Source: an uncultured Alphaproteobacteria bacterium
GTDB taxonomy: Bacteria; Pseudomonadota; Alphaproteobacteria; Rhizobiales; Xanthobacteraceae
Length of the DNA: 64,000 nucleotides
Assembly (NCBI GenBank): GCA_963727325.1
Contig: CAVSFV010000033.1
Span: forward strand, 148,687 to 212,686
Direction: 5' to 3'
The translations under genes were made by a program, and so were the position numbers. The notes beneath the pieces were generated by a model. The model did not search any database. It saw only the letters and a program-made list of their open reading frames with translations, and was not told where the DNA came from. Below, in pieces: positions 1 to 18,883 of the stretch. Positions within the stretch are counted from its first letter, which is position 1, and each line of letters opens with the position of its first letter.

Positions 1-2757
1 CGCGTTTCGTGTCCGGTTATCTCATTCAATTGCGGCCGGATATCAAACCGCTGGAAGGTGCGGCTGGCGCCGCTCACGACTTCACCGACCTGCACGCCTG
101 GACCGAGGTTTATCTGCCGGGTGCCGGCTGGGTCGGACTCGATCCCACCTCGGGACTGCTCTGCGGCGAAGGCCATCTGCCGGTCGCCGCAACCCCGCAT
201 TTTCGCTCTGCCGCACCGCTCAGCGGGCTCGTTGAACCAAGCGAAGTCCGTTTCTCGTTCGACATGAACGTCACGCGCATCGCCGAACAGCCGCGCGTAA
301 CTGCGCCGTTTTCCGAAGAAGCCTGGGTTGCGCTCGATGCACTGGGTGACAAGGTCGACGCGGACCTCATAGCGCACGATGTCCGCCTGACCATGGGTGG
401 CGAACCAACCTTCGTGTCGGTTGACGATTACCAGGCGGCGGAATGGAACACCGCCGCAGTCGGGCCGATGAAACGCGTGCGCGCCGACGAGCTAATTCGG
501 CGTTTGCGCGAGCGTTTCGCACCAGGCGGCCTGCTGCACTACGGCCAAGGCAAATGGTACCCGGGCGAACCGCTGCCGCGCTGGGCATTCGCGCTCTACT
601 GGCGCCGCGACGGCGTGCCGATCTGGCGCGATGAGAATCTGATCGCCCGCGAGGCGGTAGATCACAAGCCGACCCCCGACGATTCACAGCGCTTCGCCGA
701 GGGGATTGCCGCGCGCGTTGGAATCACGGCGGACTACGTCCAACCCGCCTACGAGGACCCGGCCGACCGGATGCTCAAGCAAGGCCTGATCCCGGAGAAC
801 ATTGATCCGAGCGATCCCAAGATCGACGATCCTCGCGAGCGCGCCCGCATTCTGAGCCTGTTCGATAATTATGCCGGCAAGCCCGCCGGATATGTGCTGC
901 CGCTGCAGCGCTGGACCGCACAAGCAAAACCGGGCTGGCTGAGCGAAGTGTGGCAAACGCGGCGTGGGCGGTTATTTCTGATGCCAGGAGACTCGTCGCT
1001 CGGATTTCGCCTGCCACTGCAATCGTTGCCCGATGTCGACCCGGTGGATTATCCGCATCTTGTACCGGCCGACCCTTTCGCTGAGCGTACGCCGCTACCC
1101 GATCCGCGCGTCACTCATCCAATCGGCGCCAAGGTCTTCCAGGCTGCACATGGCGAAGAACCTTCGCCACCGCTCGCCCCGGAGACTTTGGCCGTACAGC
1201 AAGCGCCGGCAAGAAGCACCGCGAAAACCGGCGCCGCCAGGCCGGTGCGCACCGCTCTCACCGTCGAAGTCCGTGACGGCCGCTTGTGTGTGTTCATACC
1301 GCCGGTCGAGACACTCGCCGACTATCTCGAACTGCTCGCGGTCGTCGAGACGACGGCGGCCGACCTCGCACTGCCGGTGCATGTCGAAGGCTATGAGCCG
1401 CCGCCCGATCCGCGGCTTGCCGTCATCAAGGTGACGCCGGACCCCGGTGTGATCGAGGTCAACATCCACCCGTCGGCAGCCTGGCGGGAAGCGGTGAAGA
1501 TCACGAAAGGCCTTTATGAGGAGGCGCATCTTTCGCGGCTCGGCGCCGACAAGTTCATGATCGACGGCCGGCATAGCGGCACGGGCGGCGGCAATCATGT
1601 GGTACTCGGCGGACGTACTCCCGCCGACAGTCCGTTCCTGCGGCGACCCGATTTGCTCAAAAGCCTGGTGCTGTACTGGAACCGGCGGCCGTCGCTGTCT
1701 TATTTCTTTTCCGGCCTGTTTGTCGGGCCGACGAGCCAGGCGCCGCGGATCGACGAAGCGCGCCAGGACATGCTCTACGAACTGGAAATCGCGCTCGGCA
1801 AAGTGCCCGCGCCTGACGGCGTGAACAAAGTGCCGCCGTGGCTGGTCGATCGGCTGTTCCGCAACATCCTGGTCGATGTCACCGGCAACACCCACCGCAC
1901 CGAGATCTGCATCGACAAACTGTTTTCACCCGACGGCCCGACCGGCCGTCTCGGTTTGGTGGAATTCCGATCGTTCGAGATGCCGCCCGACGCGCGCATG
2001 AGTCTCTGCTCAACAATTGTTGTTACGCGCGCTGATTGCCTGGTTCTGGCGCTCTCCGCTCGACGGCAAGCCGGTGCGCTGGGGCACAGCGTTGCACGAC
2101 CGTTACATGCTCGAACATTTTGTCTGGAACGATTTTCTCGAAGTGCTGGAGGACCTGGAGCGCGCCGGGTACGTATTCGATCCCGCGTGGTTCGAAGCGC
2201 AGCGGCAGTTTCGTTTTCCGGTCTGCGGCTCGGTGCGGCACGCTGGCGTGCGGCTTGAACTGCGCCAGGCCATCGAGCCCTGGTATGTCCTGGGCGAGGA
2301 AGGCGTTGCCGGCCGGACCGCGCGCCTCGTTGATTCCTCGATCGAGCGGCTGCAGGTCAGAGTCGAGGGCCTGAACGCGGACCGCCATGTGGTGACCTGC
2401 AATGGCGCCCGCGTGCCGCTGACATCAACCGGCCGCAGCGGCGAATACGTAGCCGGCGTCCGCTTCAAGGCCTGGGATCTGGCGTCGGGCCTGCATCCGA
2501 CCATTGGCGTCCAGGCGCCGTTGACGTTTGACATCGTCGATACCTGGAGCCGGCGGTCGCTCGGCGGCTGCGTCTACCATGTCGCCCATCCCGGCGGACG
2601 CAATTACGAGACCTATCCGGTTAACTCGTATGAGGCCGAGGCGCGCCGCCGCGCGCGTTTTGAAGAGATCGGTCACACCGGCGGCCCGATCGATGTTCCA
2701 GCACTCGAAATCTCGCTCGAATATCCGACGACGCTAGATCTGCGGCGCCCGGTCTAA
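1..2757 (+). pseudogene. Large transglutaminase-family protein (DUF2126-type). The 5' end lies outside the window. The gene is interrupted by a frameshift near 2001-2010.
   Basis: Frame 3 (ORF 9..2258) reads through the transglutaminase core motif ([23 protein letters not shown]) and a long conserved body up to ...[14 protein letters not shown], then turns into Arg/Ala-rich junk. ORF 2017..2757 in the next frame continues with family-like sequence (AQQ)[11 protein letters not shown]...[16 protein letters not shown]... to a stop at 2757. Confidence 0.8.
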
Positions 2758-2763
2758 CCAAAA

Positions 2764-5271
2764 TTGCCGATGTCACTCAAACTCGACACGCTTGTCGAAA
2801 AAGACACCGCAAGCCTCGCCCAATTCGTTGCGGGTTACCGGCCGCTGCCCGGGATTTTCGATGAGATGATGGATGGCGACGGGCGCGTGCGCGAGCACTG
2901 GCAGCCCTTCCTCACCATGCTGGCCGGACTCGGCGCCGACCAAATCAATCGGCGTTTCGCCGCAGCCGACCGTTATCTGCGCGGCTCAGGCGTTTTCTAT
3001 CGCGTGTACGAAGATGCCGCCGGCATCGAACGCCCGTGGCCGCTCAGCCATGTGCCGCTCATCATCGAACCTGGCGAATGGAAGCACCTCGAAGCCGGCC
3101 TGATCCAGCGCGCCGAGCTCCTCGAAGCGGTGCTCGCTGATGCCTATGGTCCGGCGCTGCTCAGCCGCGATGGCCGCTTGCCCGCCGCGCTGATCGCGGG
3201 AAATCCTGAATTCTTGCGTCCGATGGTCGGCGTGCCGCCGCCAGGCGGCGCGCACTTGCGCTTTTACGCCGTTGATGTCGGCCGCGGCGCCGACGGCCGC
3301 TGGTGGGCGCTGGGCGATCGTGCGCAGGCGCCCTCGGGCGCCGGTTACGCCATCGAGAACCGGCTCGCGCTGTCGCGGGCCATCCCCGACATTTATCGCA
3401 CCACGCGCGTCGAGCGCGTCGCGCCGTTCTTTCAGGCGCTGCAGGCCGAACTTTTGGCGCTCAGCAAGCAGGACGATCCGCAAATTTGTTTGCTCACGCC
3501 GGGGCCGCTGAGCGAAACCTATTTCGAGCATGCCTACCTCGCGCGCTATCTCGGGCTGCTGCTGGTCGAGGGCGAGGACCTGACCGTCCGCGGCGATGGC
3601 GTTTTCGTCCGGACCGTTTCCGGCTTGCGGCGCACCGAAGTCCTGCTGCGGCGAATCGATGCCGACTTTGCCGACCCGCTCGAACTCAATGCCGCTTCTC
3701 GCCTCGGCGTTCCGGGACTGTTGCAGGCCGTCCGCGACGGCAAAATCGTCATCGTCAACGCGCTGGGCGCCGGCTTGGTGGAAGCGCGGGCCATGCTGGC
3801 GTTCCTGCCGGCGCTGGCGCCGAACGTACTCGGCGCCGATCTGGCGATACCGAATGTCGCCACCTGGTGGCTCGGTCGCGCCGACATGCGCGAGGAAATG
3901 ATCGAGAACCTCGATCGCATGGTGATCGCATCAGCGTTTGAGTCTCAGACTGACGGCAGCAGCAACCACGAAGTGCTGGGCGCAAAACTCGACGACGCGC
4001 AACGCCAGGCTCTGATCCGTTCGATCCGCGATCGCGGCGTGGACTATGTGGCGCAGGAAGCGGTGACACTTTCAAGCATGCCGGTGTGGCGCGATGGCCA
4101 TTTGCAGCCGCGTCCTTTCACGCTGCGACTGTTCCTCGCCAAGATCGGCGAGCGCTGGCAGGTGATGCCCGCCGGATTTGTGCGTATCGCCGACAGCGCC
4201 GACGCGCGTGCGGTGAGTTTGCAACGCGGCGCCGCAACCGCCGACGCTTGGGTACTCGCGCGCGGCCCGGTCGCTGAAACCACGCTGCTGCCGTCGCCGG
4301 AGCGCATTCAGGTCCAGCGGGCGACCGGCCTGTTGCCAAGTCGCGCCGCCGATAATCTGTTCTGGGTTGGGCGTTACGTCGAACGCGCCGAAGCAACGCT
4401 GCGGCTGGTGCGCGCCATGATCAACCGCGCCGCCGAGGCCGACGAAACCGCTGCGCCGGTGATCGCGGGCATCGTGTCGTTGCTTGAGGCCTGGGACGCG
4501 GCGCCAAAACAGACGTCGGCAGCGTCGGCCGGCTTCATCAGTCGCGCTGTCCTGACCCGCTCAGACTTAAGCGGATCGCTGCCTGCTCTGGCCGGCGCCG
4601 CGCGGTCGGCAGCTTCCGTCATCCGCGATCGCTTCTCGCCGGATGCCTGGCGGGCACTCAACGATCTCGCCACCATGATCACGACGCCGCTGCCCATCGG
4701 TCCCGCGGAAACCGCCATCATCGAGCGCGTCGAAGCGGCTCTTCGGATCATTTCATCGCTCTCGGGGTTGGCGCAAGAGAACATGACGCAGCTCGCCGGC
4801 TGGCGCTTTCTCGAACTCGGCCGCCGTATCGAGCGCGCCATCCTGACCGGCCGGCTGGTGCGCTGCTTCGCGCTTGCCGGCGCGCCGGATGGTGGCCTTG
4901 AATTGCTGCTGGAACTGGCCGACAGCCAAATCACCTACCGGCAACGCTACGTGATGGTCGCGGCGCGCGCGCCGGTGATCGATCTTGTCATGCTCGATCC
5001 GAACAACCCGCGTTCGGTTGCGTTTCAGCTCGACCGCATCGAGACGCACCTGTCCGCGTTGCCGGGACGAAGCGCGACCGGCCGCCTGTCGCCCGTGCAG
5101 CAGATCGTCGCCTCGATGGCAACGCGATTGAGAACCGCCGAAGCCGCCGCCGTCGACGAGGACCTCATTGTCGATTTCGAGCAATCGCTGATGAAGCTTT
5201 CCGATGCGATCAGCGCGTCCTATCTGAGCAACAACGAACGCTCCGAAACCGTCTGGGAGGCGCTGGCGTGA
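2764..5271 (+). CDS. Circularly permuted type-2 ATP-grasp domain fused to an alpha-E domain (COG2308/COG2307-like). An alternative ATG start is at 2770.
   Basis: 835-aa ORF. The N-terminal half carries RRIDADFADPLELNAASRLGVPGLLQAVRDGKIVIVNALGAGL, typical of circularly permuted ATP-grasp proteins. The C-terminal half carries ADNLFWVGRYVERAEATLRLVR and ...GRRIERA..., typical of the alpha-E domain. Confidence 0.85.
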   Translation: MPMSLKLDTLVEKDTASLAQFVAGYRPLPGIFDEMMDGDGRVREHWQPFLTMLAGLGADQINRRFAAADRYLRGSGVFYRVYEDAAGIERPWPLSHVPLIIEPGEWKHLEAGLIQRAELLEAVLADAYGPALLSRDGRLPAALIAGNPEFLRPMVGVPPPGGAHLRFYAVDVGRGADGRWWALGDRAQAPSGAGYAIENRLALSRAIPDIYRTTRVERVAPFFQALQAELLALSKQDDPQICLLTPGPLSETYFEHAYLARYLGLLLVEGEDLTVRGDGVFVRTVSGLRRTEVLLRRIDADFADPLELNAASRLGVPGLLQAVRDGKIVIVNALGAGLVEARAMLAFLPALAPNVLGADLAIPNVATWWLGRADMREEMIENLDRMVIASAFESQTDGSSNHEVLGAKLDDAQRQALIRSIRDRGVDYVAQEAVTLSSMPVWRDGHLQPRPFTLRLFLAKIGERWQVMPAGFVRIADSADARAVSLQRGAATADAWVLARGPVAETTLLPSPERIQVQRATGLLPSRAADNLFWVGRYVERAEATLRLVRAMINRAAEADETAAPVIAGIVSLLEAWDAAPKQTSAASAGFISRAVLTRSDLSGSLPALAGAARSAASVIRDRFSPDAWRALNDLATMITTPLPIGPAETAIIERVEAALRIISSLSGLAQENMTQLAGWRFLELGRRIERAILTGRLVRCFALAGAPDGGLELLLELADSQITYRQRYVMVAARAPVIDLVMLDPNNPRSVAFQLDRIETHLSALPGRSATGRLSPVQQIVASMATRLRTAEAAAVDEDLIVDFEQSLMKLSDAISASYLSNNERSETVWEALA

Positions 5272-6146
5272 TCTATGACGTGCGCCAGACGACGACATGC
5301 GCTTATGCTTCGCCGGTCGCGCATGCACGCCACGTTCTGCGCCTGACTCCGATCCCCCGCCCCGGCCAACGTGTGCATCTCGCCGCGTTGCAGATCATGC
5401 CCGAACCCGTGCTCCGGCGGGAAGGGCAGGATTTTTTTGGCAATCGCCTGACCTGGATCGAAATCGAAGAGCCGCACCGGCTGCTTACGGTGAAACTTGC
5501 GGCGCGTGTCGCCGTCGACGCTGCAGCCGAACTCGATGCGCCGGCAACACCCGCCTGGGAGGCAGTCCGCGAGGACGGGTTCGCCGCGAGCGACATCGGA
5601 CCATACTCGCCGGCGCACTTCCTGTTTCCGAGCCGCATGGTCTCACTTGATCCGGAAATCCGTGATTATACCTCCGAGAGTTTCCCGGCCGGACGGCCGG
5701 TGCTCGAGGCCGCCATCGAACTAATGAATCGTCTCAAAGCCGACATCACTTACGAAATCGGGGCGACCACCGTCACGACCACACCGCCGATGTCGTTTGC
5801 ACTGCGGCGCGGCGTTTGTCAGGACTTCGCCCACATCATGATCTCCGGCTTGCGCGGCATCGGCTTGCCCGCCGCTTATGTGAGCGGCTATCTGCGGACG
5901 ATGCCGCGAACCGACCCCACGCGATTGCAGGGCGCCGACGCAATGCACGCATGGGTCTTGGTCTGGTGCGGCGCTGAAACCGGCTGGATCGGGCTCGATC
6001 CAACCAACGCTGTCATTGCCTCCGACCAGCATGTGGTTTTGGCGGTCGGCCGCGATTATACCGACGTCGCGCCGATGGACGGGGTCATTGTTGGTTCGGG
6101 TGGGCAACAAATCGATGTGGCCGTGAACGTCACGCCGGCCGGATAA
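5268..6146 (+). CDS. Small transglutaminase family protein (bacterial transglutaminase-like N-terminal region plus core).
   Basis: 292-aa ORF. Its GTG start overlaps the upstream stop (GTGA). Begins MIYDVRQTTTCAYASPV...; contains GVCQDFAHIMISGLRGIGLPAAYVSGY and DAMHAWVLVWCG...GWIGLDPTN (Cys-His-Asp core pattern). Confidence 0.85.
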   Translation: MIYDVRQTTTCAYASPVAHARHVLRLTPIPRPGQRVHLAALQIMPEPVLRREGQDFFGNRLTWIEIEEPHRLLTVKLAARVAVDAAAELDAPATPAWEAVREDGFAASDIGPYSPAHFLFPSRMVSLDPEIRDYTSESFPAGRPVLEAAIELMNRLKADITYEIGATTVTTTPPMSFALRRGVCQDFAHIMISGLRGIGLPAAYVSGYLRTMPRTDPTRLQGADAMHAWVLVWCGAETGWIGLDPTNAVIASDQHVVLAVGRDYTDVAPMDGVIVGSGGQQIDVAVNVTPAG

Positions 6147-6174
6147 ACGAGCCGCGAAGCGGGGAGCACAAAGC

Positions 6175-7191
6175 ATGCGTGCCTATCAACTGCCGAAAGG
6201 CGGCGCCGGGATCGACGCGCTCACGTTGGTCGATCGGCCGATGCCGAAACCGCTATACCGGCAAGTGTTGGTCAAAGTCGCCGCGTGTTCGCTCAATTTC
6301 CGCGACTACGGCATCGTCCGCGGCAGCTACCGCATGCCTGTGCGCGAAAATGTGATTCCGCTATCCGATGGCGCCGGCGAAGTCGTCGAGACCGGCCCGG
6401 GCGTCACCCGCGTAAAACCCGGCGACAAGGTGGCCGGCTGCTTCTTCCAGCGCTGGCCGGCCGGCGAGCCGGATCCGCATGTGCACGCATCTGCGCTCGG
6501 CGGCAGCCTTGACGGCATGCTCACCGAATATGTGGTGCTGGAGGAGAACGGTGTCGTCAAAATTCCGCAGCATCTATCCGTGGAAGAGGCTGCGACCCTG
6601 CCGTGCGCGGCGGTGACGGCATGGCATGCGATGATCCTGCACGCCGGACTGATCGCCGGCCAGACCGTGTTGTTGCAGGGCACCGGCGGCGTTTCGATCT
6701 TCGGGTTGCAATTCGCGCACGTGATGGGAATCGTGCCGATCATCACGTCGTCGAGCGATCAGAAACTCGCTCACGCCAAAGCGCTCGGCGCCGCTTGCGG
6801 CATCAACTATAAGACCACGCCGGAATGGGACAAAGAGGCCATCGCTTTTAACGGCGGCCGCGGGGTCGATCACGTGCTGGAAGTCGGCGGCGCAAATACG
6901 CTTACCCGCTCGTTCGGCGCCATCCGGGTCGGCGGCAAAATCAGCATCATCGGCGGGTTGAGCGGTGGAGCGACCGAGCTCAATCCCGGTTTGATCTTCT
7001 CCAAACGCGCCAATGTGCAGGGCATCTCCGTGGGCTCAACGGAGTCGTTCGAGCAGATGAACGCCGCAATCTCGGCCACGAAGCTGAAGCCGGTGATCGA
7101 CCGCGTATTCGGCTTCGATGAAGTCAAAACCGCCTTCCATCATATGGGGGCGGGAGCGCATTTCGGCAAAATCGTCATCCGGGTCGCGTAA
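6175..7191 (+). CDS. NAD(P)-dependent alcohol dehydrogenase / quinone oxidoreductase (MDR superfamily).
   Basis: 338-aa ORF with a GGGGAG Shine-Dalgarno 8 nt upstream. MDR-like pattern: VLVKVAACSLNFRD, GQTVLLQGTGGVS Rossmann motif, C-terminal HFGKIVI. Confidence 0.85.
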   Translation: MRAYQLPKGGAGIDALTLVDRPMPKPLYRQVLVKVAACSLNFRDYGIVRGSYRMPVRENVIPLSDGAGEVVETGPGVTRVKPGDKVAGCFFQRWPAGEPDPHVHASALGGSLDGMLTEYVVLEENGVVKIPQHLSVEEAATLPCAAVTAWHAMILHAGLIAGQTVLLQGTGGVSIFGLQFAHVMGIVPIITSSSDQKLAHAKALGAACGINYKTTPEWDKEAIAFNGGRGVDHVLEVGGANTLTRSFGAIRVGGKISIIGGLSGGATELNPGLIFSKRANVQGISVGSTESFEQMNAAISATKLKPVIDRVFGFDEVKTAFHHMGAGAHFGKIVIRVA

Positions 7192-7210
7192 CAGGCGGTG
7201 CCGCCAATCG

Positions 7211-8632
7211 TTATTGCGCGACCATCCGCGTCGGCGGAAATGCGACCTCAATGAGCGTGCCGGCATTTGGCGCGCTCTTGATGCTGAAATGGGCGCGGTT
7301 GGCCTCTGCCAGCGCCTTGGTCAGCGGCAAGCCGAGACCGGTCCCGCCCGAGCCCCAGGTACCGGCGGTGGCCGTCTGGCGAAACGGTTCGAGCGCGGCC
7401 TCGACGTCCTTTTCGCTCATGCCGACGCCGGTATCGCGCACGCGCAGCACCGCCTCGCCGTTGTCGGCGCATGCGGTCGATACGATCACCTGGCCACCTG
7501 GGCCGGTGAACTTGATCGAATTCGACAGGAGGTTGAGCACGATTTGGCGCAGTGACCGCTCATCAGCCACGACCTGGGGCAATCCCGGCGTGAGCGAAGT
7601 GCGGATGATGATCCGCGCGCGGCTCGCCTGCGGCTGCATGATCCCGACGCATTGCTGCGTGAGCTCGTTGAGGCTGACGTTGCCGAAGCTGAGAGTGAGC
7701 TGGCCACTCTCGATTTTGGAGAGGTCGAGAAGGTCGTTCAACAGCGCAACGATGTGCATGCCGGCCGCGTGCACATCGTTGAGATAGTCGCGGTAGCGCT
7801 CGTTGCCGATCGGGCCGAAGCGCTCCGCCATAATCACTTCAGTGAAGCCGACAATGGCATTAAGCGGCGTGCGAATCTCGTGACTGACTTTACCGACGAA
7901 CTCCGCTTTCGCCGCCGCCGCTCTTTGCGCTTCACGCGTGGCGGCCCGCAACTGGTCCTCGCTTTTCTTGGCGGCTTCGAGCTTGCTGGCAAGGTCGCGG
8001 ATTTCGGCCTCGGCGAGGCGCAGTGAAAGCGCGCTCGCCTGCTGGTCGGCGATTTCGCGGTCGGTCAGAATGAGAGTGAGCGCTGAAGCATCTTCCCAGG
8101 GAACCTCGAACAACCGCGCCTCGATCTCGCGGCGTTCCCCGTTGAATGTCGCAAGCGATAGCTTGCTCGGGGCTCCGCCAACCGAAAGCGTGCCGGCGTC
8201 GGTTTCGGCGACAAGGCCTTTCAACCACCCGGCCGCCGTTAATGCTCCCAAACTCTGATAGCCGGTCAATTCAAGGAAACGACGATTGGCGTAAAGAACC
8301 GAGTCGTTTCGGTAGAACAGCACGCCGAGCGGAAGGCGGTCGAGCAACACCGGCTCGAAGGCGGGCGCGGCTTGCCGTTGAACTTCGATCTCTGACCTTC
8401 GCTCCTGGTCAGAAGCTTGCACTTTGGCAGCATCCACCTCGGCGACAACAGGACTTTCCGCCGCTTGTTGCACCGTTGCACTCACAAGCGCCGAGCTGAC
8501 TTCGGCAGCTGCAGGAGCAGCATCAGCAAGTTCAGGTGCAATCGGTTCCGCATTTGGCGGTGTCAGCGAGGTCTCGGCAGATTCAGCCGGAACTCCCGCC
8601 GCCGGCAGAGTGTTCGCCGATGCTGTCGGCAA
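7211..8632 (-). CDS. Sensor histidine kinase portion (PAS + HisKA + HATPase_c), PleC/DivJ/PdhS-like. Probably the C-terminal part of one larger gene together with 8583..10187.
   Basis: H-box FVGKVSHEIRTPLNAIVGFTEVI, ERFGPIGNERYRDYLNDVH, N/G boxes (LLSNSIKFT, RDTGVGM, GGTGLGLPLTKAL). The start is a weak TTG, and the frame stays open upstream of it. Confidence 0.8.
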   Translation of the reverse strand: MPTASANTLPAAGVPAESAETSLTPPNAEPIAPELADAAPAAAEVSSALVSATVQQAAESPVVAEVDAAKVQASDQERRSEIEVQRQAAPAFEPVLLDRLPLGVLFYRNDSVLYANRRFLELTGYQSLGALTAAGWLKGLVAETDAGTLSVGGAPSKLSLATFNGERREIEARLFEVPWEDASALTLILTDREIADQQASALSLRLAEAEIRDLASKLEAAKKSEDQLRAATREAQRAAAAKAEFVGKVSHEIRTPLNAIVGFTEVIMAERFGPIGNERYRDYLNDVHAAGMHIVALLNDLLDLSKIESGQLTLSFGNVSLNELTQQCVGIMQPQASRARIIIRTSLTPGLPQVVADERSLRQIVLNLLSNSIKFTGPGGQVIVSTACADNGEAVLRVRDTGVGMSEKDVEAALEPFRQTATAGTWGSGGTGLGLPLTKALAEANRAHFSIKSAPNAGTLIEVAFPPTRMVAQ

Positions 8633-10187
8633 CCGAATGGTCCCGCCCGCCCTGCAAACGAGCCGTCAGCTCCTGAGCCAATTCACGGAAAGCCCGACGC
8701 TCCACGGGGCTCAGACTGGGCGTTTTCGGTTCGGACATCCCTGGTCGAAACAGCACAACATTGGCGGCGGGTGCGGCGCCCAGCGGCGGGCGCTGCGGCG
8801 GTCGCACACCCTGCGCTTCTTCTGCGGATGGCGATGGGGACACCGCGGCTTTGGTGTCAGCGGCCGTCGCCTCTACCGGACCTGGATGAGCCAGAGCGCC
8901 ACCGTTGCTGGTAGCGGGCGGTTCGGGCCGCGCCATGAAGCCGATCGGGCGCTCGCGGCGCGCGTGGGCGAGTTCGTTGATGCGAGCGATGTCGCGACAG
9001 ACGCCGAAACCCCGGTAGCCGCGAAAGTGCCGCTCGCGATCGAACACCGGCAGTCCCGACAGTTCGACCGCAAGTCGCGTGTCGCCATCGTCAACTGGCC
9101 AGGAGACGGTGATGCCGCTCCAGGTTTCGCGCGTGGCCACGGCACGCGCCACCTGCTGGTCCGGATCGAGCTTCAGTTCCGCGGCGATCTCGCTCCACAA
9201 CCGGCCGAACGCGGCCGTGGTTTGCGGCCCAGTCAATTCGATGAACTCGTCCGAACCCACGACGAAGCGCCCATCGGCGTCCATTTGCCAGACGAAGCGC
9301 AACGGATGACGCCGCTCTACAACTGGCTCCGCCGGCGAAGGACTGCTTACCGGGCTCGATTCTGATTCTAATTCCGACTCTGATGGCGTGGCGGCAGAAG
9401 CTTTTGGCTCAGCCGCCGGCGGAAGTACTGGCGGCTGGGTACGCATCAGTCCCAACTCCGGCTCTGGCGTCGGTGCCGGCTCTACTCGCGGTGAAGCACT
9501 CTCCACGGCGCTAACGCTGCTCAATTCATCGCCGAACGTCGCCAGCAGGACAGCCGACGCGCCGCTACCGAGGCGCCGCAGGGTAACGGGGCCATGATTT
9601 GTTGTTGCGTCAGCGCCGCCAGCCGCAAGGGCTTGAGCGGCGGTCGCGGTCAGCCCAAACGCGGACAACGTTGGGGTTCCGGCAAATCGCTTCTGCGCCT
9701 CCGCAGTGGCGGCGAGCAGCGTGCCATCCGGTGCGAACGCCGCCTGCGCCTCGGATTGGTCTGAGAACAGACGCTTGACCCTCTCGCCAAGCGGCAGCGC
9801 TGGTCCCGCGGGCTCGTTGGCGACGACCAGTACCGCCGGCGAGCCGTTGGGCAACGAGAAACGCGAGCAGACGCACGTAAGCGTGTGACCAAAGCTGGCG
9901 CCGAAGCCCCGCAGTCTTTCAAGTCGTGCTTGCCCGGTCGATGGCAGCGTTTCAGCGAGGCGGACAATTGCCACGGCCGCGGGTTGTTTTGCCTCGAAGC
10001 GCCGACCGGTGAGTGCGGTGGTATTCGCAGCGCCGAAGATCGCCGCGCCGACCGCATTGGCCCAGAGAATCCGGGAGCCGTCGGCACTCCACAGCCACGC
10101 AGGCGATGGGCTCGTCGCGTGATCGACGAACTGAGCCCAGAGTCGCGGGTCGCGCGACAGGGCAAATTCTGACTCCGCGATCGGCAT
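8583..10187 (-). CDS. PAS-domain sensory protein without an output domain. Likely the N-terminal part of the downstream kinase.
   Basis: 534-aa ORF with an ATG start at 10187. PAS-like segments (WLWSADGSRILWANAVGAAIFG; RFVWQMDADGRFVVGSDEFIELTG) and Ala/Pro-rich linkers. Overlaps the kinase ORF by 50 nt in another frame. Confidence 0.6.
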   Translation of the reverse strand: MPIAESEFALSRDPRLWAQFVDHATSPSPAWLWSADGSRILWANAVGAAIFGAANTTALTGRRFEAKQPAAVAIVRLAETLPSTGQARLERLRGFGASFGHTLTCVCSRFSLPNGSPAVLVVANEPAGPALPLGERVKRLFSDQSEAQAAFAPDGTLLAATAEAQKRFAGTPTLSAFGLTATAAQALAAGGADATTNHGPVTLRRLGSGASAVLLATFGDELSSVSAVESASPRVEPAPTPEPELGLMRTQPPVLPPAAEPKASAATPSESELESESSPVSSPSPAEPVVERRHPLRFVWQMDADGRFVVGSDEFIELTGPQTTAAFGRLWSEIAAELKLDPDQQVARAVATRETWSGITVSWPVDDGDTRLAVELSGLPVFDRERHFRGYRGFGVCRDIARINELAHARRERPIGFMARPEPPATSNGGALAHPGPVEATAADTKAAVSPSPSAEEAQGVRPPQRPPLGAAPAANVVLFRPGMSEPKTPSLSPVERRAFRELAQELTARLQGGRDHSVADSIGEHSAGGGSSG

Positions 10188-11953: not shown

Positions 11954-13199
11954 ATGCCCGTGAACCGCGCGACGACATTGACGGCGTTCAGGAACGCACC
12001 CGCGCTGCCGGACTTAAGCCGCGCGGCAGCAGCGCCAAGCGTTGAGCGCCTGCGCGAAACGCCGGCGAAACTGAATTTCCACATCTACGGCGATTTGACC
12101 GCAATCGAGAGCGATTGGCGGCGCTTCGAGCGAAAAGCCGATTGCACCGCGTTCCAGACTTTCGATTGGCTCTCGGCGTGGCATCGAAATATCGGGCTGC
12201 GCCAGGGCGTCCACCTGGCGATCATCGTCGGCCGCTACAGCGACGATGAAATCGCTTTCATCATGCCGTTCTGCGTAGAGCCGGAACGGCTGGCACGACG
12301 GTTATGCTGGCTCGGACAGAAGCTGAGCGACTACAACGGACCGCTGCTGGCGCCCGACTTCTCGCAACGCGTCCCGCGCGAAAGCTTTCTCGCTCTCTGG
12401 CGGGAGCTGAAGGCGCAGATGCAATGCGATCCGCTGTTGCGTTATGACTGGATCGAGTTTGAGAAGATGCCGGAAACGATCGGCACTCAAATCAATCCAT
12501 TCACCTTTCTCCGGGTCGCACTGAATGCCAGCGGCGCACATCTGACGCATCTCGCCGATGACTGGGAAAAATTCTACACCGCCAAGCGCTCGTCCGCGAC
12601 ACGCCGCCGCGACCGCGCCAAGCGCCGGCATATGTCAGAATTCGGCGAGGTCCGCTTCGTGACCGCAGCCGGGCGCGGACGATACCCGGCGCACGCTCGA
12701 AACGCTGCTCGAACAAAAAAGCCGGTCGCTCGCGCGCCGGGGAATTGCCAACATCTTTGCCCCGCCCGGACACCGCGAGTTTTTTCTCGACCTCGCATCA
12801 AATCCGCAAAGCCGGCATCTGTTTCACATCAGCCGAATTGATGTTGGCAAATCGTGCGCGGCTGCGAACTTCGGCATCATGTTCGGCGATCGCTACTACC
12901 ACGTGGTCGCCAGTTACGACGACGGCGATATCGCGCACTACGGACCTGGCGCGCTTCATTTGCGCGAACTCATGGCTGAAGCGATCAGAATGAGGCTGAA
13001 ACGCTTCGATTTCACGATCGGCGACGAGCCGTACAAACTGGAATGGTCCGATACCACTCTCAACTTGTACGACTTCGCGGCCGCCGCGACTTGGCGTGGC
13101 TTACCCGCGCGAACCGCTTCAGCGGTGCGACGCCGGATTAAACGCTTCATCAAACAAACCCCATGGGCATGGCGCTTGGCTTCTCGTGCGCGGTCCGCG
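11954..13199 (+). pseudogene. CelD/BcsL (FemAB-like) GNAT acetyltransferase-fold protein, frameshifted near 12663-12675. The 3' boundary is uncertain because no stop codon occurs before the ATP-grasp module.
   Basis: ORF 11954..12841 is family-like up to ...EVRFVTAA, then becomes junk. The frame of ORF 12879.. is open from 12663 and reads ADDTRRTLETLLEQKSRSLARRGIANIFAPPGHREFFLDLASNPQSRHLFHISRIDVGKSCAAANFGIMFGDRYYHVVASYDDGDIAHYGPGALHLRELM...DFTIGDEPYKLEW. Confidence 0.65.
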
Positions 13200-14454
13200 A
13201 TGGGCCCGCTGTCGCGGCCGAAATTCCTGTCTCGATCACATGCCCACGAAGCAGCCCGTTTACGCGGCGCGGCGACTACACAAGCGGTCGCCTGCGTCAT
13301 GGGTGATATGGATCTATTGCGGCCGCTGGTCCTGGCCGGCGTTCCTTGCGCCGTCGTGACGCGGCCGGGTGTCCCCTCGCTCTACTCCCGATACGCACAA
13401 TCTCATCTGGTCTGGGATGATTATTCGAAGGACACCGAGGTCCTGGTCGACGCGTTGGTGCGCTTCGGCAAGGCGCAGCCCGAGCGCCCGGTTCTGTTCT
13501 ATGAAGAAGACAGCCAAATTCTTCTGATCTCGCGGTTTCGCGAACGCTTGAAAGAGGCTTTCCGCTTCGTCATTGCCGAAGCCAAGCTCGTCGACGATCT
13601 TCTCGATAAAGGACGCTTTCAGCTCCTCGCGGAGCGCCATGGTTTCGCGGTGCCGGTGGGACGGCGTTTCGACCCCGCGAGCCCTCGAAGCTGAGAATCT
13701 CGGGCTTGCGTTCCCGCTGATCGTTAAGCCGCTGACCCGGCTCAAGCTCTGGACCGACACTTTCGGACTGAACAAGGCCATTAACGTCGAAAACGCTGAG
13801 GCGTTGCGAAGCTTGTGGCCGCAATTGCGCACAATTGGCCTCAAACTTTTGGCTCAGGAATTCATCCCCGGCGGAGAAGGCCGGATCGAAAGCTACCACT
13901 GCTACGTGGATCAACGCGGCGAAATTGCCGGCGAATTCACCGGTCGAAAGATCCGCACTTATCCGGTGTGTTACGGCCACACCAGTGCGCTGGAGATCAC
14001 CGATGCCGACGATGTGCGCCAAAATGGACGCGCTGTCGTTGAGGCACTGGCGCTCACCGGAGTGGCCAAACTCGACTTCAAGCGCGACCCGCGCGGCAAT
14101 CTGCGTCTTTTGGAAATCAATCCTCGCTTCAATCTGTGGCATCACGCCGGAGCCGTTGCCGGCGTGAACATTCCGGCGCTGGTTTACGCCGACTTGGTCG
14201 GCATCCCGCGACCACCGGCCGCGCAAACCCGCGCCGGCGTCCGCTGGTGCCGGATGTGGAAGGATCTCCCGGCCGCGCGCTCCGCCGGGATGCCGCTGAG
14301 AGCGTGGCTGCCCTGGGCGTTCACCTGCGAAGCCAAGTCGACTTTGTCGTGGGACGATCCGATGCCGTTTTTGCGATCGACACTGCATCGCGCGGCCGGC
14401 CATTACCTCGGACGCGAGCAAGCAGGCGCCTGGCACCGGCAGAATTGTGGCTGA
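13200..14454 (+). pseudogene. ATP-grasp domain protein, frameshifted near 13670-13690. It is in frame with the upstream GNAT module with no intervening stop.
   Basis: The N-terminal part (frame of 12879..13694) reads ...VACVMGDMDLLRPLVLAGVPCAVVTRPGVPSLYSRY...FQLLAERHGFAVP. The C-terminal part (ORF 13573..14454) reads LEAENLGLAFPLIVKPLTR...LLAQEFIPGGEGRIESYHCYVDQRGEIAGEFTGRKIRTYP...VAKLDFKRDPRGNLRLLEINPRFNLWH (ATP-grasp fold motifs). Confidence 0.65.
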
Positions 14455-14580
14455 GTCTGGCGTCGGGCCGTATTGGCTGACACCGCGCTTCTTCCCACGG
14501 CACCGCGGGACGCGCTAAACAATGATGGTGCGCCGTCCGACATTGCCATCCGGCGCGCGGCGCAACCGTTGAACACCGTG

Positions 14581-15504
14581 ATGAACACCAATTCGTTCTG
14601 GCCGGACCTGCCGCTGACGGCGTGGTCCGATACCTGCGAGACCCTGCATCGCTGGACGCAGGTCGCAGGCAAGGTGCGGCTCAAGTCGACCCCGCTGGTC
14701 AATCATTGGTGGAATGTGACGTTCCATCTGAATTCGCGCGGCCTGGTCGCACCGGCGAATATTTATAATGGGCGCAGCTTCGATATTGTCTTCGACTTCG
14801 TCGATCATCTCCTTCGTGTTGCGACCAGCGACGGCAGGGTCGAAAGCTTCGCGCTTGCGCCGATGTCGGTTGCCGATTTCTATGCGGAGTTCATGGCGCG
14901 TTTGCGCCGCCTCGACATCGACATCCACATCTGGACGATGCCCAGCGAAATCGAAAATGCGGTGCCGTTCGAACAGGATCGCGCGCACGCCCAATACGAT
15001 CCGGAATATGTGTCGCGCTTTCAACGAATCGTCGTTCAGAGCGCCCGCGTGATGAACGAATTCCGCGCCCGCTTTATCGGCAAAGTCAGCCCGGTGCATT
15101 TCTTCTGGGGCAGTTTCGATCTCGCGGTCACGCGGTTTTCCGGCCGCACCGCACCACCGCCTCGAAGCGTCACGCCGAACGTCGCCGGCTGGGTCATGGC
15201 GGAAGCGTATTCGCACGAGGTTTCGAGCTGCGGTTTTTGGCCGGGCAACGGCGGTTACGGCCGCGCTGCATTCTATGTCTACGCTTACCCGGAGCCGTCG
15301 GGTTACGGCGACACGCAATTGCGGACGCCAGAGGCTTTCTACGATAAAAACCTGGGCCAATTCATTTTGCCGTACGACGTTGTTAGACAGTCGCGCGATC
15401 CCGATGCGCTATTGCTCGGTTTTCTGCAAGAAACCTACGAGGCCGCGGCTAACCTTGCCGACTGGGATCGCAAAAGCCTCGAACGCGGGGCTGCGCGCCA
15501 ATAA
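14581..15504 (+). CDS. DUF5996 family protein. The ORF is open from 14473; the ATG at 14581 fits the usual family N-terminus.
   Basis: NSFWPDLPLTAWSDTCETLHRWTQVAGKVRL...NHWWNVTFHLNSRGL...FFWGSFDLAVTRFSGR match the pattern I associate with DUF5996. Confidence 0.75.
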   Translation: MNTNSFWPDLPLTAWSDTCETLHRWTQVAGKVRLKSTPLVNHWWNVTFHLNSRGLVAPANIYNGRSFDIVFDFVDHLLRVATSDGRVESFALAPMSVADFYAEFMARLRRLDIDIHIWTMPSEIENAVPFEQDRAHAQYDPEYVSRFQRIVVQSARVMNEFRARFIGKVSPVHFFWGSFDLAVTRFSGRTAPPPRSVTPNVAGWVMAEAYSHEVSSCGFWPGNGGYGRAAFYVYAYPEPSGYGDTQLRTPEAFYDKNLGQFILPYDVVRQSRDPDALLLGFLQETYEAAANLADWDRKSLERGAARQ

Positions 15505-15528
15505 TTTTGGGGTGGATCGGCAACCGTT

Positions 15529-17583
15529 ATGCGCATCGGCATCCGCCTCGCGATTTCCAGTCTGGTGCTGGCGTCGATCATCGTCAGCGCGATCGGCGTG
15601 CACCTGTTGTGGTGGCGAACCGCTGAGGCGAACAGCCGCGCGCTGGCGACGACGATCGACGAGCAGATCGTCTCGGCGGTGCAGAAAGAACTCAACACCA
15701 TCACGACCCAGGCTACGGCCGCGCACACCGCGATTCGCACTCTGTTCGTGCAGAATGTGCTCGGCGCGCGCGAAGCCGACAAACGCGAATTCGTCTTTCT
15801 GTCGCAGCTGCAATCGCAGCCAAGCATTTCGTGGGTCGCATTCGGGTTTCCGAACGGAGATTTCTTCGCAGCGCACAAGCTCGGCGATCTGAGCCTGGAA
15901 ATGATGGAGATCGCGCGCGTCGACGGCGTGATCAAACGGCGCGTCGACGCTTATCAGGTGGTCGTTGGCGACATTCAATTCGAGAAACGCCGGTTCGAAG
16001 ACACCAACTACGTTGTTACCGATCAGGAATGGTACCGCAAAGCCATCAAGAACGACGATCCGGCATGGTTCGAAGTCTCTGACCTGCCGGTGGGGTTGCG
16101 TCCATCGATCGTCTATGCCGGCCCGATCGACGTCTACCAAAAGCGGCAGGGCGTGCTTGCGGTCATCATCGAAAACACCCGGCTCGCACAATTCCTCTCG
16201 CAACTCTCCGTCGGCAAGACCGGCGCGGCTTTCATCCTGGGCCGCGACGGGACCGTTATCGCCGGCCCCGACCCCGATGCCGACGAACTCAAAATGCAGC
16301 GCTCGAATCAGCCATTGCTGCCGATCGCCCAAGGGGCGATGAAGGCGGCCGGCAGTTCGTACAGCAGCACCGGCAAGGTGGCGCACCCCATGCGTTTCGT
16401 CGCCGATGCGAACGCCTACGCGGTAACTTTAACACCGCTCGATTTTCCGGGCTGGACGCTTGCGACCGTCATTCCGGAAGCGGAGTTTTTAGGGCCGATC
16501 GAAACGACGATCCGTTATTTGGTCATCGGCCTGGCGCTTCTCATTGTTGTTGCCGGCATTTTTTCAGCATGGCTGGCCCGACGGATCATTGCAGGCCCTT
16601 TAATTACGGTGGTTGACGAGATCAAACACGTCGAGCGCTTTGAGCTCGACCAGGTGCGCCGACATCCATCGCGCGTTGCCGAACTCGAGAACCTGTCGAA
16701 CGCGATTGCCGATATGGCGGGCGGCCTTGCCGCCTTTCGCAAGTACATACCTGCGGATCTGGTAAGGATGCTGCTGCGCGAGGGCGTCGAGCCGCGACCC
16801 GGCGGCTCAGTACGGACCCTCACGGTGATGTTCACCGATATTGCCGGCTTTACCGGCCTGTCCGAGCGGCTCGGCGACCAGATCATCCCGCTGTTGTCCG
16901 GCTACCTCGATGTCATGTCGCGCGAGGTGAACTCCCATGGCGGTACAATCGACAAATTTATCGGCGACGCGGTGATGGCGTTCTGGGGCGCACCGATGAC
17001 CAACGCCGATCACGCCGTCGACGCGTGCCGTGCGGCACTGGCCTGCCAGCGGTCGCTTCAAGCGTCCGGGCTGACCGACGACGGCGGCCGGCCGCTCAAA
17101 GCACGGATTGGCGTCAATTCCGGCGATATGCTGGTCGGCAACATCGGATCCGAGTTCCGCCTCAACTACACCGTCATCGGTGATGCCGTGAATGTCGCGA
17201 GCCGCCTTGAGGGCGCCAACAAGGAGTACGGCACCGATATCATCATCGGCGAAGAAACGCGGCGGTTGGCGGGAGATCGTATCCACGTCCGCGAGCTTGA
17301 TCGGCTCATGGTGTACGGCCGCGCCGGCGGCCTCGCCATCTATGAATTGCTCGACGTCGCCGAACACGGAGCCGGGCCGCCTGGTTGGGTTGCACTCTAC
17401 GACTCTGGTCTGGCGGCCTACCGCGCGGGCGATTTTGCCGGCGGCATGATTTTCTTCCAGAAGCTTTTGGCCGAGCGGCCGTCTGACCCACCGGCTCGCA
17501 TCATGCTCGAACGATGCAAACAATTTGCCGCCTGCCCCCCGGGAAAGGAGTGGGAAGCGACGAACGCGATGAAAGTGAAGTAA
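15529..17583 (+). CDS. Membrane adenylate/guanylate cyclase with a periplasmic Cache-like sensor, HAMP and class III cyclase domain.
   Basis: 684-aa ORF with an N-terminal TM segment, a roughly 280-aa extracytoplasmic region, a second TM segment and a HAMP-like linker. Cyclase core: LTVMFTDIAGFTGLSE...GGTIDKFIGDAVMAFWGAP...RIGVNSGDMLVGNIGS..RLNYTVIGDAVNVASRLEG. Confidence 0.9.
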   Translation: MRIGIRLAISSLVLASIIVSAIGVHLLWWRTAEANSRALATTIDEQIVSAVQKELNTITTQATAAHTAIRTLFVQNVLGAREADKREFVFLSQLQSQPSISWVAFGFPNGDFFAAHKLGDLSLEMMEIARVDGVIKRRVDAYQVVVGDIQFEKRRFEDTNYVVTDQEWYRKAIKNDDPAWFEVSDLPVGLRPSIVYAGPIDVYQKRQGVLAVIIENTRLAQFLSQLSVGKTGAAFILGRDGTVIAGPDPDADELKMQRSNQPLLPIAQGAMKAAGSSYSSTGKVAHPMRFVADANAYAVTLTPLDFPGWTLATVIPEAEFLGPIETTIRYLVIGLALLIVVAGIFSAWLARRIIAGPLITVVDEIKHVERFELDQVRRHPSRVAELENLSNAIADMAGGLAAFRKYIPADLVRMLLREGVEPRPGGSVRTLTVMFTDIAGFTGLSERLGDQIIPLLSGYLDVMSREVNSHGGTIDKFIGDAVMAFWGAPMTNADHAVDACRAALACQRSLQASGLTDDGGRPLKARIGVNSGDMLVGNIGSEFRLNYTVIGDAVNVASRLEGANKEYGTDIIIGEETRRLAGDRIHVRELDRLMVYGRAGGLAIYELLDVAEHGAGPPGWVALYDSGLAAYRAGDFAGGMIFFQKLLAERPSDPPARIMLERCKQFAACPPGKEWEATNAMKVK

Positions 17584-17700: not shown

Positions 17701-18018
17701 GTGAATACAAAAAACATGACTGCAAAAAGCGCGCTGGCCGCCGCTATCGCCAGTTCCTTTGCCACGGCGCTCGCCATAATCGCCACGCCGGCACATTCAG
17801 CTCCGAAGCCGCCGCAACCGACGATGGACAAATGCTTCGGCATCGCTTTGAAGGGCGACAATGACTGCGCCGCCGGCCCTGGCACCACATGCGCGGGCAC
17901 GGCCGCTGCCGATTACCAGAGCAATGCCTGGAAGTACGTGCCGAAGGGAACGTGTGCGACCGTGGTGACCCCTAAGGGTAAAGGCTCGCTTGAGCCGAAC
18001 AAATCCGACCCGTCATAG
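17701..18018 (+). CDS. bufA: DUF2282 family secreted Cys-containing peptide (BufA1-type bufferin RiPP precursor).
   Basis: 105-aa ORF with GGAAGGGA upstream of the GTG start. Sec signal peptide ...[13 protein letters not shown]. Core [47 protein letters not shown] has four Cys. Confidence 0.85.
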
Positions 18019-18025
18019 ACGTTCC

Positions 18026-18883
18026 GTGTCTGACGCTTCGCACTTGCCAGCGCGCGCCGGCGTCGGCTTCAAGCCTCAGCATTTTCGCGACATCATCGCA
18101 GCACCGCAACCGATCGGTTTCTTCGAGGTTCACGCCGAGAATTACATGGGCGCGGGAGGACCGCCGCATGCGCGGCTCGGCGTCTTGCGCGAGCGCTACG
18201 CGCTCTCGATCCACGGCGTCGGGCTTTCGATCGGCTCAATGCAGCCGCTCGACCGCGCTCATCTCGCGCGCCTCAAAATCCTCTGCGATCGCTATCAGCC
18301 GGAAAGCTTTTCCGAACACCTCGCCTGGTCGTCGCACGACGGCGTCTATCTCAACGATCTCCTGCCGTTGCCATACACCGCGGAAACTTTGGCCCGCTTG
18401 GTGGAGCATATCGACGAGGTGCAGACAACGCTGGGGCGAACAATGTTGCTCGAAAATCCGTCCCGCTACGTGCGCCTTGCTGAAAGCACAATGCCGGAGG
18501 TCGAGTTCCTCGCCGACGTATCGAGCCGGACCGGGTGTGGGTTATTGCTTGACGTCAACAACGTTTTCGTTTCGGCCAAGAACAGCGGCGCAACGCCACT
18601 GTCGTATCTGGATTCGTTTCCATTCGATCGGGTTCGGGAGATCCACCTCGGCGGACATCATGAGGAAACCGATGAGGCCGGAGCGCCGCTGCTGATCGAT
18701 GATCATGGTTCGCCGGTCGCGAACGCTGTCTGGATGCTTTATAAACACGTCATCAATCGGGTCGGCCCGATCGCAACTTTGATCGAATGGGATAACGACA
18801 TTCCGGACTGGCCGACATTACGCGACCAGGCCGCGGTGGCCGGCAAGATCCTGACCGCGGCGTCGCGAGCGTCGGCCGCGTGA
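18026..18883 (+). CDS. bufB: DUF692/UPF0276 multinuclear non-heme iron oxidase (MNIO, MbnB-like; BufB). The ORF is open from a TTG at 17990; the GTG at 18026 avoids overlap with bufA.
   Basis: [13 protein letters not shown]...[19 protein letters not shown]...[12 protein letters not shown]...FSEHLAWS...LLENPS.Y...[13 protein letters not shown]...EIHLGGH are hallmarks of the DUF692 TIM-barrel family. Confidence 0.9.

Follow-up and report, generated by a model that had tools for sequence, protein, structure and literature searches.

A DUF2126-type transglutaminase, ATP-grasp/alpha-E and transglutaminase gene triad of a soil Xanthobacteraceae genome, with a possible link to nitrogen limitation

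The stretch of DNA analysed here, hereafter the window, comprises 64,000 nucleotides from an uncultured Alphaproteobacteria bacterium of the Xanthobacteraceae (assembly GCA_963727325.1, contig CAVSFV010000033.1, positions 148,687 to 212,686). Its first 6,146 positions carry three genes of one orientation, encoding a large protein with transglutaminase and DUF2126 domains, a fusion of a circularly permuted (CP) ATP-grasp domain with an alpha-E domain, and a small transglutaminase-fold protein. This triad, from the genome of an uncultured soil member of the Xanthobacteraceae, is a copy, intact in design, of the Rv2566/Rv2567/Rv2569c-type cluster (COG4196, COG2308/COG2307 and COG1305). It is an ordinary member of a known, widespread and still functionally orphan cluster which was described in 2008-2009 by comparative genomics. 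Among the new observations is an invariant sigma-54-type motif found before the triad in related genomes, fitting the published NtrC/sigma-54 control of homologous clusters. Our best overall explanation takes four points jointly, namely the identity of the triad, an artefactual frameshift in its large gene, regulation by nitrogen limitation and a mechanism with two ligases, and was given a probability of about 0.5. Domain content, folds, conserved linkage and purifying selection are the demonstrated part of this account.

Domain content and conservation of the triad

Analysis of open reading frames (ORFs) and a Pfam scan confirmed three tightly packed, co-oriented genes over positions 1-6146, separated by 12 nt between the first and second and overlapping by 4 nt between the second and third. 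Domain searches on the three products upheld the ATP-grasp, alpha-E, transglutaminase and DUF2126 assignments of a first-pass annotation made from the DNA letters and their ORF translations, which as a whole was largely right. The ratio of nonsynonymous to synonymous substitution rates (dN/dS) ranged from 0.03 to 0.13 across all parts of the triad. Judged directly from the sequences, none of the three proteins starts with a recognisable signal peptide. No model for any of them was found in NCBIfam (June 2026) or PADLOC, so that the cluster goes without a curated name and is absent from the catalogued defence systems.

The large gene is read on the forward strand in two frames. Its first part (1..2007, frame 3) is cut by the window start and its second part (2011..2757, frame 1) ends with a TAA stop at 2755-2757. 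Pfam DUF2126 (PF09899) was matched by profile positions 2-581 at 3-2012 (E = 1e-265), together with the tail of a Transglut_core domain, and by profile positions 581-826 at 2002-2757 (E = 2e-119). These consecutive profile pieces in two frames thus represent one gene, broken by a single frameshift. The window edge truncates the protein at about residue 206 of about 1115: the His and Asp of the N-terminal transglutaminase catalytic site are located at about 93 and 141 in the window, and the Cys falls upstream. The complete architecture, Bact_transglu_N, Transglut_core and DUF2126, was found in the related loci L054 and L006 (1116 aa) and in P0003, an intact 1115-aa homologue from a JGI metagenome which is 94% identical to the window protein. 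In the alignment of the DUF2126 family, residues E783, E832, E956 and D908 were invariant, and near-invariant arginines were also seen.

An AlphaFold 2 (AF2) model of P0003 was obtained with a mean confidence (pLDDT) of 87 and a predicted template modelling score (pTM) of 0.85. Its N-terminus matched the transglutaminase-like cysteine protease 3ISR (Foldseek, E = 1e-13) and TgpA, while the rest of the model repeatedly matched glutamine synthetase (GS), YbdK/GCS2 (1R8G) and GmaS, with probabilities of 0.8-0.98 and weak E-values of 0.014-0.1. These fold matches are in line with Iyer et al. 2008 (PMC2588565), who described the Rv2566 family as having a transglutaminase at the N-terminus joined to a carboxylate-amine ligase at the C-terminus. 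The 840-aa C-terminal part of the DUF2126 protein is predicted to be a GS/GCS2-like ligase. The initial description of the product as a large DUF2126-type transglutaminase protein was therefore correct regarding the transglutaminase, which Pfam supports, and imprecise in leaving out that its C-terminal part is itself a predicted ligase.

The fusion gene occupies positions 2770..5271 (+), with the ATP-grasp domain at about 3055-4191 and the alpha-E domain at about 4333-5226. The longest ORF (2764-5271) reads 835 aa from a TTG, as the first reading had it; the true start is likely at 2770, since an ATG is present there and the relatives point to it, giving a protein of 833 aa. The fusion itself was upheld by Pfam matches to CP_ATPgrasp_2 (PF14403, E = 5e-136), CP_ATPgrasp_1 (PF04174, E = 1e-92) and Alpha-E (PF04168, E = 2.4e-69, residues 524-821). 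Two ER motifs mark the alpha-E domain, GRYVERAE at 4369 and GRRIERA at 4819. In 63 sequences with 36-41% identity to the window protein, the invariant residues were R, Y, E and R in the former and G, the first R and E in the latter, whose other two R were conserved in at least 90%.

By sequence, the fusion protein matched the structure 3N6X in the PDB (E = 5.5e-75). The AF2 model of the 833-aa protein reached a pLDDT of 82.8, and its first 500 residues or so matched the same structure with E = 2e-31 and a template modelling (TM) score of 0.86 (Foldseek). The next matches were eukaryotic-type glutathione and homoglutathione synthetases (2HGS, 8FBZ, 3KAL and 1M0W; E of about 1e-10 to 1e-11, target TM 0.59-0.67), followed by the E-64 ligase Cp1B, YjfC, and glutathionylspermidine and trypanothione synthetases. 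Every structural neighbour of the ATP-grasp half with a characterised function is thus a small-molecule carboxylate-amine ligase. This half is modelled with a glutathione-synthetase-like fold and, at an identity of only 11-14%, may be said to work like glutathione synthetase rather than to belong to its family. No significant structural neighbour was found in the PDB for the alpha-E half (best Foldseek E = 0.09, probability below 0.35). This all-helical domain (4333-5226) was nevertheless modelled with moderate to high confidence.

The third gene (5268..6146, +) encodes a 292-aa protein with the Pfam domains Bact_transglu_N and Transglut_core. The gene starts with a GTG that shares bases with the TGA stop of the fusion gene (GTGA), which confirms the overlap reported at first pass. 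The Cys-His-Asp catalytic site is complete, with Cys184 at 5817, His227 at 5946 and Asp244 at 5997; PDB matches were 3ISR (E = 3e-8) and TgpA (6G49), and dN/dS was 0.075-0.094. The triad is hence predicted to hold two ATP-dependent ligases, of which the DUF2126 one is itself a prediction, and two transglutaminase-fold Cys-His-Asp domains.

The DUF2126 family comprised 2,950 clusters at 50% identity (E <= 1e-30). Distant loci were sampled through nine DUF2126 representatives with 37-47% identity, of which seven had enough flanking sequence (L081 and L083 were too short). CP_ATPgrasp, Alpha-E and a small transglutaminase adjoined DUF2126 in all seven. Because this neighbourhood is kept across distant loci, the four domain families must have been associated since ancient times and for functional reasons, which is what Iyer et al. 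had concluded. Two layouts were observed. In the split one (L086-L089), the order was ATP-grasp, Alpha-E, a GATase_4-transglutaminase and DUF2126 as separate genes. The fused one (L082, L084 and L090) had the order of the window, with DUF2126, ATP-grasp-Alpha-E and a transglutaminase of about 292 aa; it was preceded by an extra split pair, and by a second DUF2126 paralogue in two of the three loci. The window lineage carries a minimal fused triad.

Several features of the distant clusters deserve mention on their own. Tandem DUF2126 paralogues were seen within one cluster at L082:6753-13255, L084:3625-10087 and L083:14-5754, and the clusters of L082 and L084 hold both split and fused ATP-grasp/alpha-E sets. 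A GATase_4 domain (class-II glutamine amidotransferase, an Ntn hydrolase) was fused N-terminally to the small transglutaminase at L086:888-2618, L087:2555-4504, L088:5202-6998 and L089:4998-6809. It may replace the proteasome beta-like (PF00227-related) peptidase Anbu, which is likewise an Ntn hydrolase.

The first-pass annotation had reported no Anbu-like gene in the window, and no Pfam match to the proteasome/Anbu family was obtained among the window ORFs submitted to the scan, which were plausible genes of at least 200 aa (overlapping shadow ORFs and shorter ones stood outside it). Its further suggestion, that such a gene could sit upstream, was not supported by the relatives: none was found within 6.6 kb upstream of the triad in L054 and L006, the two relatives scanned, where the genes encode DUF992, aminotransferase, GT87, GST and MFS/BT1 transporter proteins. 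The link with Anbu does not apply to this fused layout.

The frameshift of the large gene

In the sequence as given, the largest component is frameshifted by one inserted base, as had been noted at first pass. Alignment with 79 relatives placed the extra base at about 2008-2010 (+; GAGTCT[C]TGC), 3-4 nt past a GAGTC that occupies 2000-2004 and is an instance of the motif GANTC: the window reads ATGAGTCT[C]TGCTCAA where the consensus reads ATGAGTCT-CGCTCAA. The comparison was based on 80 related loci from species-representative genomes, all of them metagenome-assembled genomes (MAGs) of Xanthobacteraceae type from soil or peat, with ATP-grasp proteins 73-93% identical. Loci with Flye-style contig names were classed as long-read (49 loci) and the others as short-read (31 loci).

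GANTC is the methylation motif of CcrM in Alphaproteobacteria, and methylated motifs are a known origin of systematic nanopore errors. Frameshifts in the triad genes of these relatives amounted to 19 per 330 kb in long-read loci versus 1 per 197 kb in short-read loci, an excess of about 11-fold. GANTC or GANNTC was present at 10 of the 19 long-read junctions, whereas 4.2 +/- 1.7 were expected (P = 0.0025). Three relatives, all long-read assemblies, were shifted at the same site as the window by unlike insertions, giving GAAGTC (L002), GAGTTC (L007) and TCTCCGC (L003). Since these differ in base and position, the lesions were not inherited. Two near-identical proteins on two long contigs, P0001 and P0002, were broken at different places, and P0003 was intact. 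Additionally, dN/dS against the closest relatives (L001-L005 and L054) was 0.06-0.08 before the shift and 0.03-0.10 after it, and with one base removed the window retains all 91 family-conserved positions that it covers.

The frameshift is thus, on this sequence evidence, most probably a long-read consensus error at or near GANTC. Since an assembly artefact is the most likely origin, the large gene is probably functional in the cell, and the first-pass proposal that the system may be inactive was not upheld. The alternative is a real pseudogene: the +1 insertion would be a genuine mutation that cuts the large protein short after about residue 874 and leaves a system that is inactive or in decay. 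This alternative is improbable. The frameshift does stand in the sequence as given and three related MAGs are broken at the same codon pair. However, the relatives' insertions are not shared by descent and are confined to the assemblies with the 11-fold excess, selection is not relaxed downstream of the shift, no conserved residue is lost, and near-identical genomes are disrupted at different places. Moreover, other genes of the window are broken in the same manner. At least four coding +1 shifts relative to the relatives were counted in its first 15 kb, in the DUF2126 gene, in a PAS histidine kinase gene (about 8624) and twice in a GNAT/ATP-grasp gene (about 12668 and 13681), and the latter two genes are uninterrupted ORFs in several relatives.

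A programmed +1 frameshift, or transcriptional slippage at GAGTCT, that would yield two forms of the protein was also considered and rejected, its probability being close to negligible. The window and three relatives do change frame at a common site, but 75 of the 79 relatives keep one uninterrupted frame, the shifted sequences are unlike one another, neither a slippery run nor a conserved stimulatory element is present, and short-read assemblies are never shifted at this site.

It is worth adding that one-base insertions which turn GANTC into GANNTC were found at L002:9231-9248, L003:9230-9248 and L007:9226-9245, as well as in L027, L031, L034, L040 and L068. Such recurrent insertions look like a systematic basecalling error at the CcrM motif, one that produces false pseudogenes. 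As the cause of all frameshifts of the window, GANTC was rejected, since the DUF2126 shift alone lies within 10 nt of one.

Nitrogen control and possible function

Alignment of the regions upstream of the large gene brought out a conserved element, CGGCCCGGAA[A/C]TTGCATG, in all 73 relatives with enough sequence, located 51-173 nt (mode 63) before the ATG. It has the spacing GG-N10-GC and an invariant GGCC, AA and TTGCA between diverging flanks, and it deviates from the sigma-54 consensus TGGCACG-N4-TTGCW by two mismatches. In L054 it lies at about 6575-6595, with equivalents in the 72 other loci, in the region corresponding to that upstream of the window's left edge. A strict sigma-54 regular expression returned nothing upstream of the triad in the relatives, and the motif emerged only from the alignment. 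The distant clusters yielded a single candidate sigma-54/NtrC site, TGGCACGGTGAGTGCA, which precedes the fused gene of L084. Other features of these upstream regions were a small palindrome past the motif, seemingly covarying (GGAAAT..ATTTCC versus GGTTAT..ATAATT), and a conserved GCGTAACGCGTAACAGC which immediately precedes the DUF2126 ATG.

In several relatives, an apparent hairpin followed by a T-run was seen by eye between the upstream transporter gene and the motif; if this is a terminator, the triad forms its own transcription unit. A promoter and terminator scan of window positions 1-7600 stayed at chance level, with terminator-like sites at no more than chance frequency and none between the triad genes. 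The triad of the relatives would be a transcription unit of its own behind a strictly conserved candidate sigma-54-type promoter. Published data on homologous clusters point to the same regulation. In B. cenocepacia H111, expression of I35_5080-83 is sigma-54-dependent under nitrogen limitation and drops 6-9 fold in an ntrC mutant; these genes encode DUF404/407 (CP ATP-grasp), DUF403 (alpha-E), transglutaminase-like and large transglutaminase-like proteins (PMC5491218). In P. putida, nitrogen limitation raises the expression of PP_2686-88 of the Anbu operon, which are listed as NtrBC targets, by 11-37 fold (PMC7801951). Because homologous clusters are under such control, the triad would, by analogy, also be switched on by nitrogen limitation.

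Comparison with known systems places the triad among several partial counterparts. Rv2566, Rv2567 and Rv2569c of M. tuberculosis have the same three architectures and are all uncharacterised. Rv2569c is presumably the homologue of the small transglutaminase protein. One paper, which also remarks on its cysteine-protease domain, reports that it breaks down casein and E-cadherin in vitro and that its inhibitor profile is that of a serine protease (PMC11081392); as a surface serine-type protease it would fit poorly with the cytoplasmic Cys-His-Asp protein of the window. The B. cenocepacia cluster (BCAM1233-1236) has the same four domain families, and its NtrC and sigma-54 dependence matches the motif found before the triad in the window's relatives (PMC5491218). 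It differs in that ATP-grasp and alpha-E are encoded separately and the large protein stands at the end, as in the split layout of L088 and L089. The Anbu operon (PP_2685-88 of P. putida, and Y. bercovieri) shares CP ATP-grasp, alpha-E and the small transglutaminase with the triad, is induced by nitrogen limitation (PMC7801951) and has no defined function. Unlike the fused, DUF2126-containing triad of the window, it includes the proteasome-like Anbu, has no DUF2126 protein and encodes ATP-grasp and alpha-E in two genes.

Regarding mechanism, the closest analogies are found in glutathione metabolism. GshA and GshB pair a ligase of the GS/GCS superfamily with a permuted ATP-grasp enzyme of glutathione-synthetase fold, as the triad is modelled to do, and glutathionylspermidine synthetase/amidase fuses a ligase to a papain-like cysteine amidase, as does the large triad protein. 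The likeness is one of fold and logic only (10-14% identity) and these systems lack alpha-E, which makes it an analogy of mechanism and not membership. By this analogy, the DUF2126 and ATP-grasp ligases would work one after the other, like GshA and GshB on the way to glutathione, and would build a small amide-linked peptide or conjugate, probably of gamma-glutamyl type, through acyl-phosphate intermediates. The papain-like transglutaminase-fold domains would be the matching amidases or transpeptidases, hydrolysing or transferring the new bond in a role modelled on the amidase domain of glutathionylspermidine synthetase/amidase, and alpha-E would be an accessory domain of the ATP-grasp enzyme. 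This chemistry, in which ligases made under nitrogen stress build an amide-linked small peptide or conjugate that the transglutaminase folds hydrolyse or transfer, is possible and falls short of probable. The more specific proposal of a pathway induced by nitrogen starvation through NtrC and sigma-54, with alpha-E guiding the ATP-grasp enzyme and a new gamma-glutamyl-type product being recycled or transferred by the transglutaminase folds, must be considered somewhat unlikely.

A number of observations weigh against the joint explanation. The literature offered no defined function for the triad, nor a substrate, product or activity for any member. Proteins of the Anbu operon formed no stable complexes (PMC6376114), and Rv2567 was negative when tested for the synthesis of gamma-aminobutyrate (GABA)-trehalose (bioRxiv 10.64898/2026.04.15.718621). 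The GS-like fold of DUF2126 comes from Foldseek matches with weak E-values (0.014-0.1), and a sequence profile of the family, compared with PDB sequences, returned transglutaminases only and no GS-type match. The promoter motif lies outside the window, which begins inside the large gene; furthermore, matches to the sigma-54 consensus with two mismatches occur in the window at chance density (11 found versus 13.8 expected), so that position, orientation and conservation are all the promoter call is based on. As to the frameshift, only one of the four coding shifts listed for the window is within 10 nt of a GANTC, the long-read versus short-read contrast was drawn among the relatives, and a genuine, very recent mutation may still be compatible with the consensus sequence.

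The first-pass annotation had stated that no biochemical function was shown for this neighbourhood. This holds in that no function is defined for the triad, and is qualified by the liberation of phosphate from ATP by a homologous ATP-grasp protein of the Anbu operon (PMC6376114), the negative result with Rv2567 and the protease report on Rv2569c. In the work on GABA-trehalose, Rv2567 served only as a negative control candidate. The attribution of the neighbourhood to comparative genomics of amidoligases was right (Iyer 2008, PMC2588565; Iyer 2009, as cited by the Anbu structure papers).

Another explanation is protein tagging, in which the ligases would add an amino acid or short peptide to protein carboxylates and the transglutaminase folds would remove or cross-link this tag, in the manner of RimK, of tubulin tyrosine ligase with vasohibin or of pupylation, with a proteasome-like hydrolase downstream in the Anbu versions. 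This reading of the ATP-grasp/alpha-E/transglutaminase neighbourhood goes back to Iyer et al. 2009, as quoted in PMC6376114 and PMC5666114. DUF2126 shares its assigned superfamily, that of the carboxylate-amine ligases, with PafA, the Pup ligase, and Dop (Iyer 2008, PMC2588565), a proteasome-family gene is found 4 kb from the distant cluster L082, and enzymes with a transglutaminase fold classically target proteins. On the other hand, the triad differs from PafA/Dop in having no Pup-like ORF, proteasome or sequence-level similarity. Its genes are 12 nt apart or overlap and leave no small conserved ORF for a tag, as Iyer 2008 likewise noted, no Anbu accompanies it among the scanned ORFs, the characterised structural neighbours of the ATP-grasp half all act on small molecules, and the Anbu-operon proteins showed no stable complexes. 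Tagging was for these reasons judged unlikely.

A further reading is a catabolic, nitrogen-scavenging pathway. The ligases would use ATP to activate an external amine, amide or peptide, much like gamma-glutamylation in the Puu and GmaS pathways, after which ammonia or amino acids would be freed by the cysteine hydrolase domains. The NtrC/sigma-54 control of homologous clusters under nitrogen limitation and the conserved sigma-54-type motif would fit such scavenging, as would the matches of the DUF2126 model to GmaS and glutamine synthetases and the fusion of the small transglutaminase to GATase_4 in the split clusters L086-L089. However, the cluster is not accompanied by any conserved transporter or substrate-binding protein in the distant loci, and two separate ligases exceed the need of known gamma-glutamylation pathways, which leaves scavenging decidedly improbable beside the two-ligase synthesis proposed above.

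Neighbouring genes and significance of the cluster

A gene related to Zn-dependent alcohol dehydrogenases and quinone oxidoreductases (6175..7191, +; Pfam ADH_N and ADH_zinc_N) starts 28 nt past the triad, all its NCBIfam matches falling below cut-off. It is probably co-transcribed with the triad in the window. It is not a conserved member of the cluster, since other genes intervene in L004, L016 and L017 and it is absent from the distant clusters. On the opposite strand, the PAS, HisKA and HATPase histidine kinase (7211-10187, -; Pfam) is split into parts of 473 and 534 aa by its +1 shift; most relatives checked have it as a single unbroken ORF of about 890-1080 aa. The GNAT/ATP-grasp gene of about 831 aa (11954-14454, +; Acetyltransf_6, FemAB-like, and ATPgrasp_Ter) is spread over three frames by its two shifts. 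Situated 5.8 kb past the triad and kept in synteny among close relatives, it is predicted to encode another amidoligase. It is followed by genes for a DUF5996 protein (E = 1.5e-132) and a Cache-domain adenylate/guanylate cyclase (14473-17583, +; Pfam).

Further downstream, positions 17701-19653 (+) hold a Bufferin-like cluster for a ribosomally synthesised and post-translationally modified peptide. It encodes a 105-aa protein with a signal peptide and 4 Cys (DUF2282, E = 1.6e-23), then an enzyme of the MbnB/TglH/ChrH family (PF05114, E = 4.5e-103) and a DUF2063 protein, a trio presumably of the 'bufferin' type. The remaining genes of the window are those of an ordinary chromosome, including cytochrome c oxidase genes, thrC, an M16 peptidase gene and atpB.

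The window copy, being from an uncultured soil bacterium, offers nothing beyond its cultured homologues. It does call for caution, as apparent pseudogenes in alphaproteobacterial long-read MAGs can be insertion errors at GANTC. The DUF2126-type cluster reaches pathogens such as M. tuberculosis and Burkholderia and has remained an orphan since 2008-2009, which makes assigning its function worthwhile. In this regard, the conserved sigma-54-type promoter would tie the fused triad to the nitrogen-stress regulon, and the pairing of ligase folds like those of GshA and GshB suggests concrete assays. If the two-ligase pathway is true, it would represent a new small-molecule or tagging chemistry common to thousands of bacteria, including M. 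tuberculosis.

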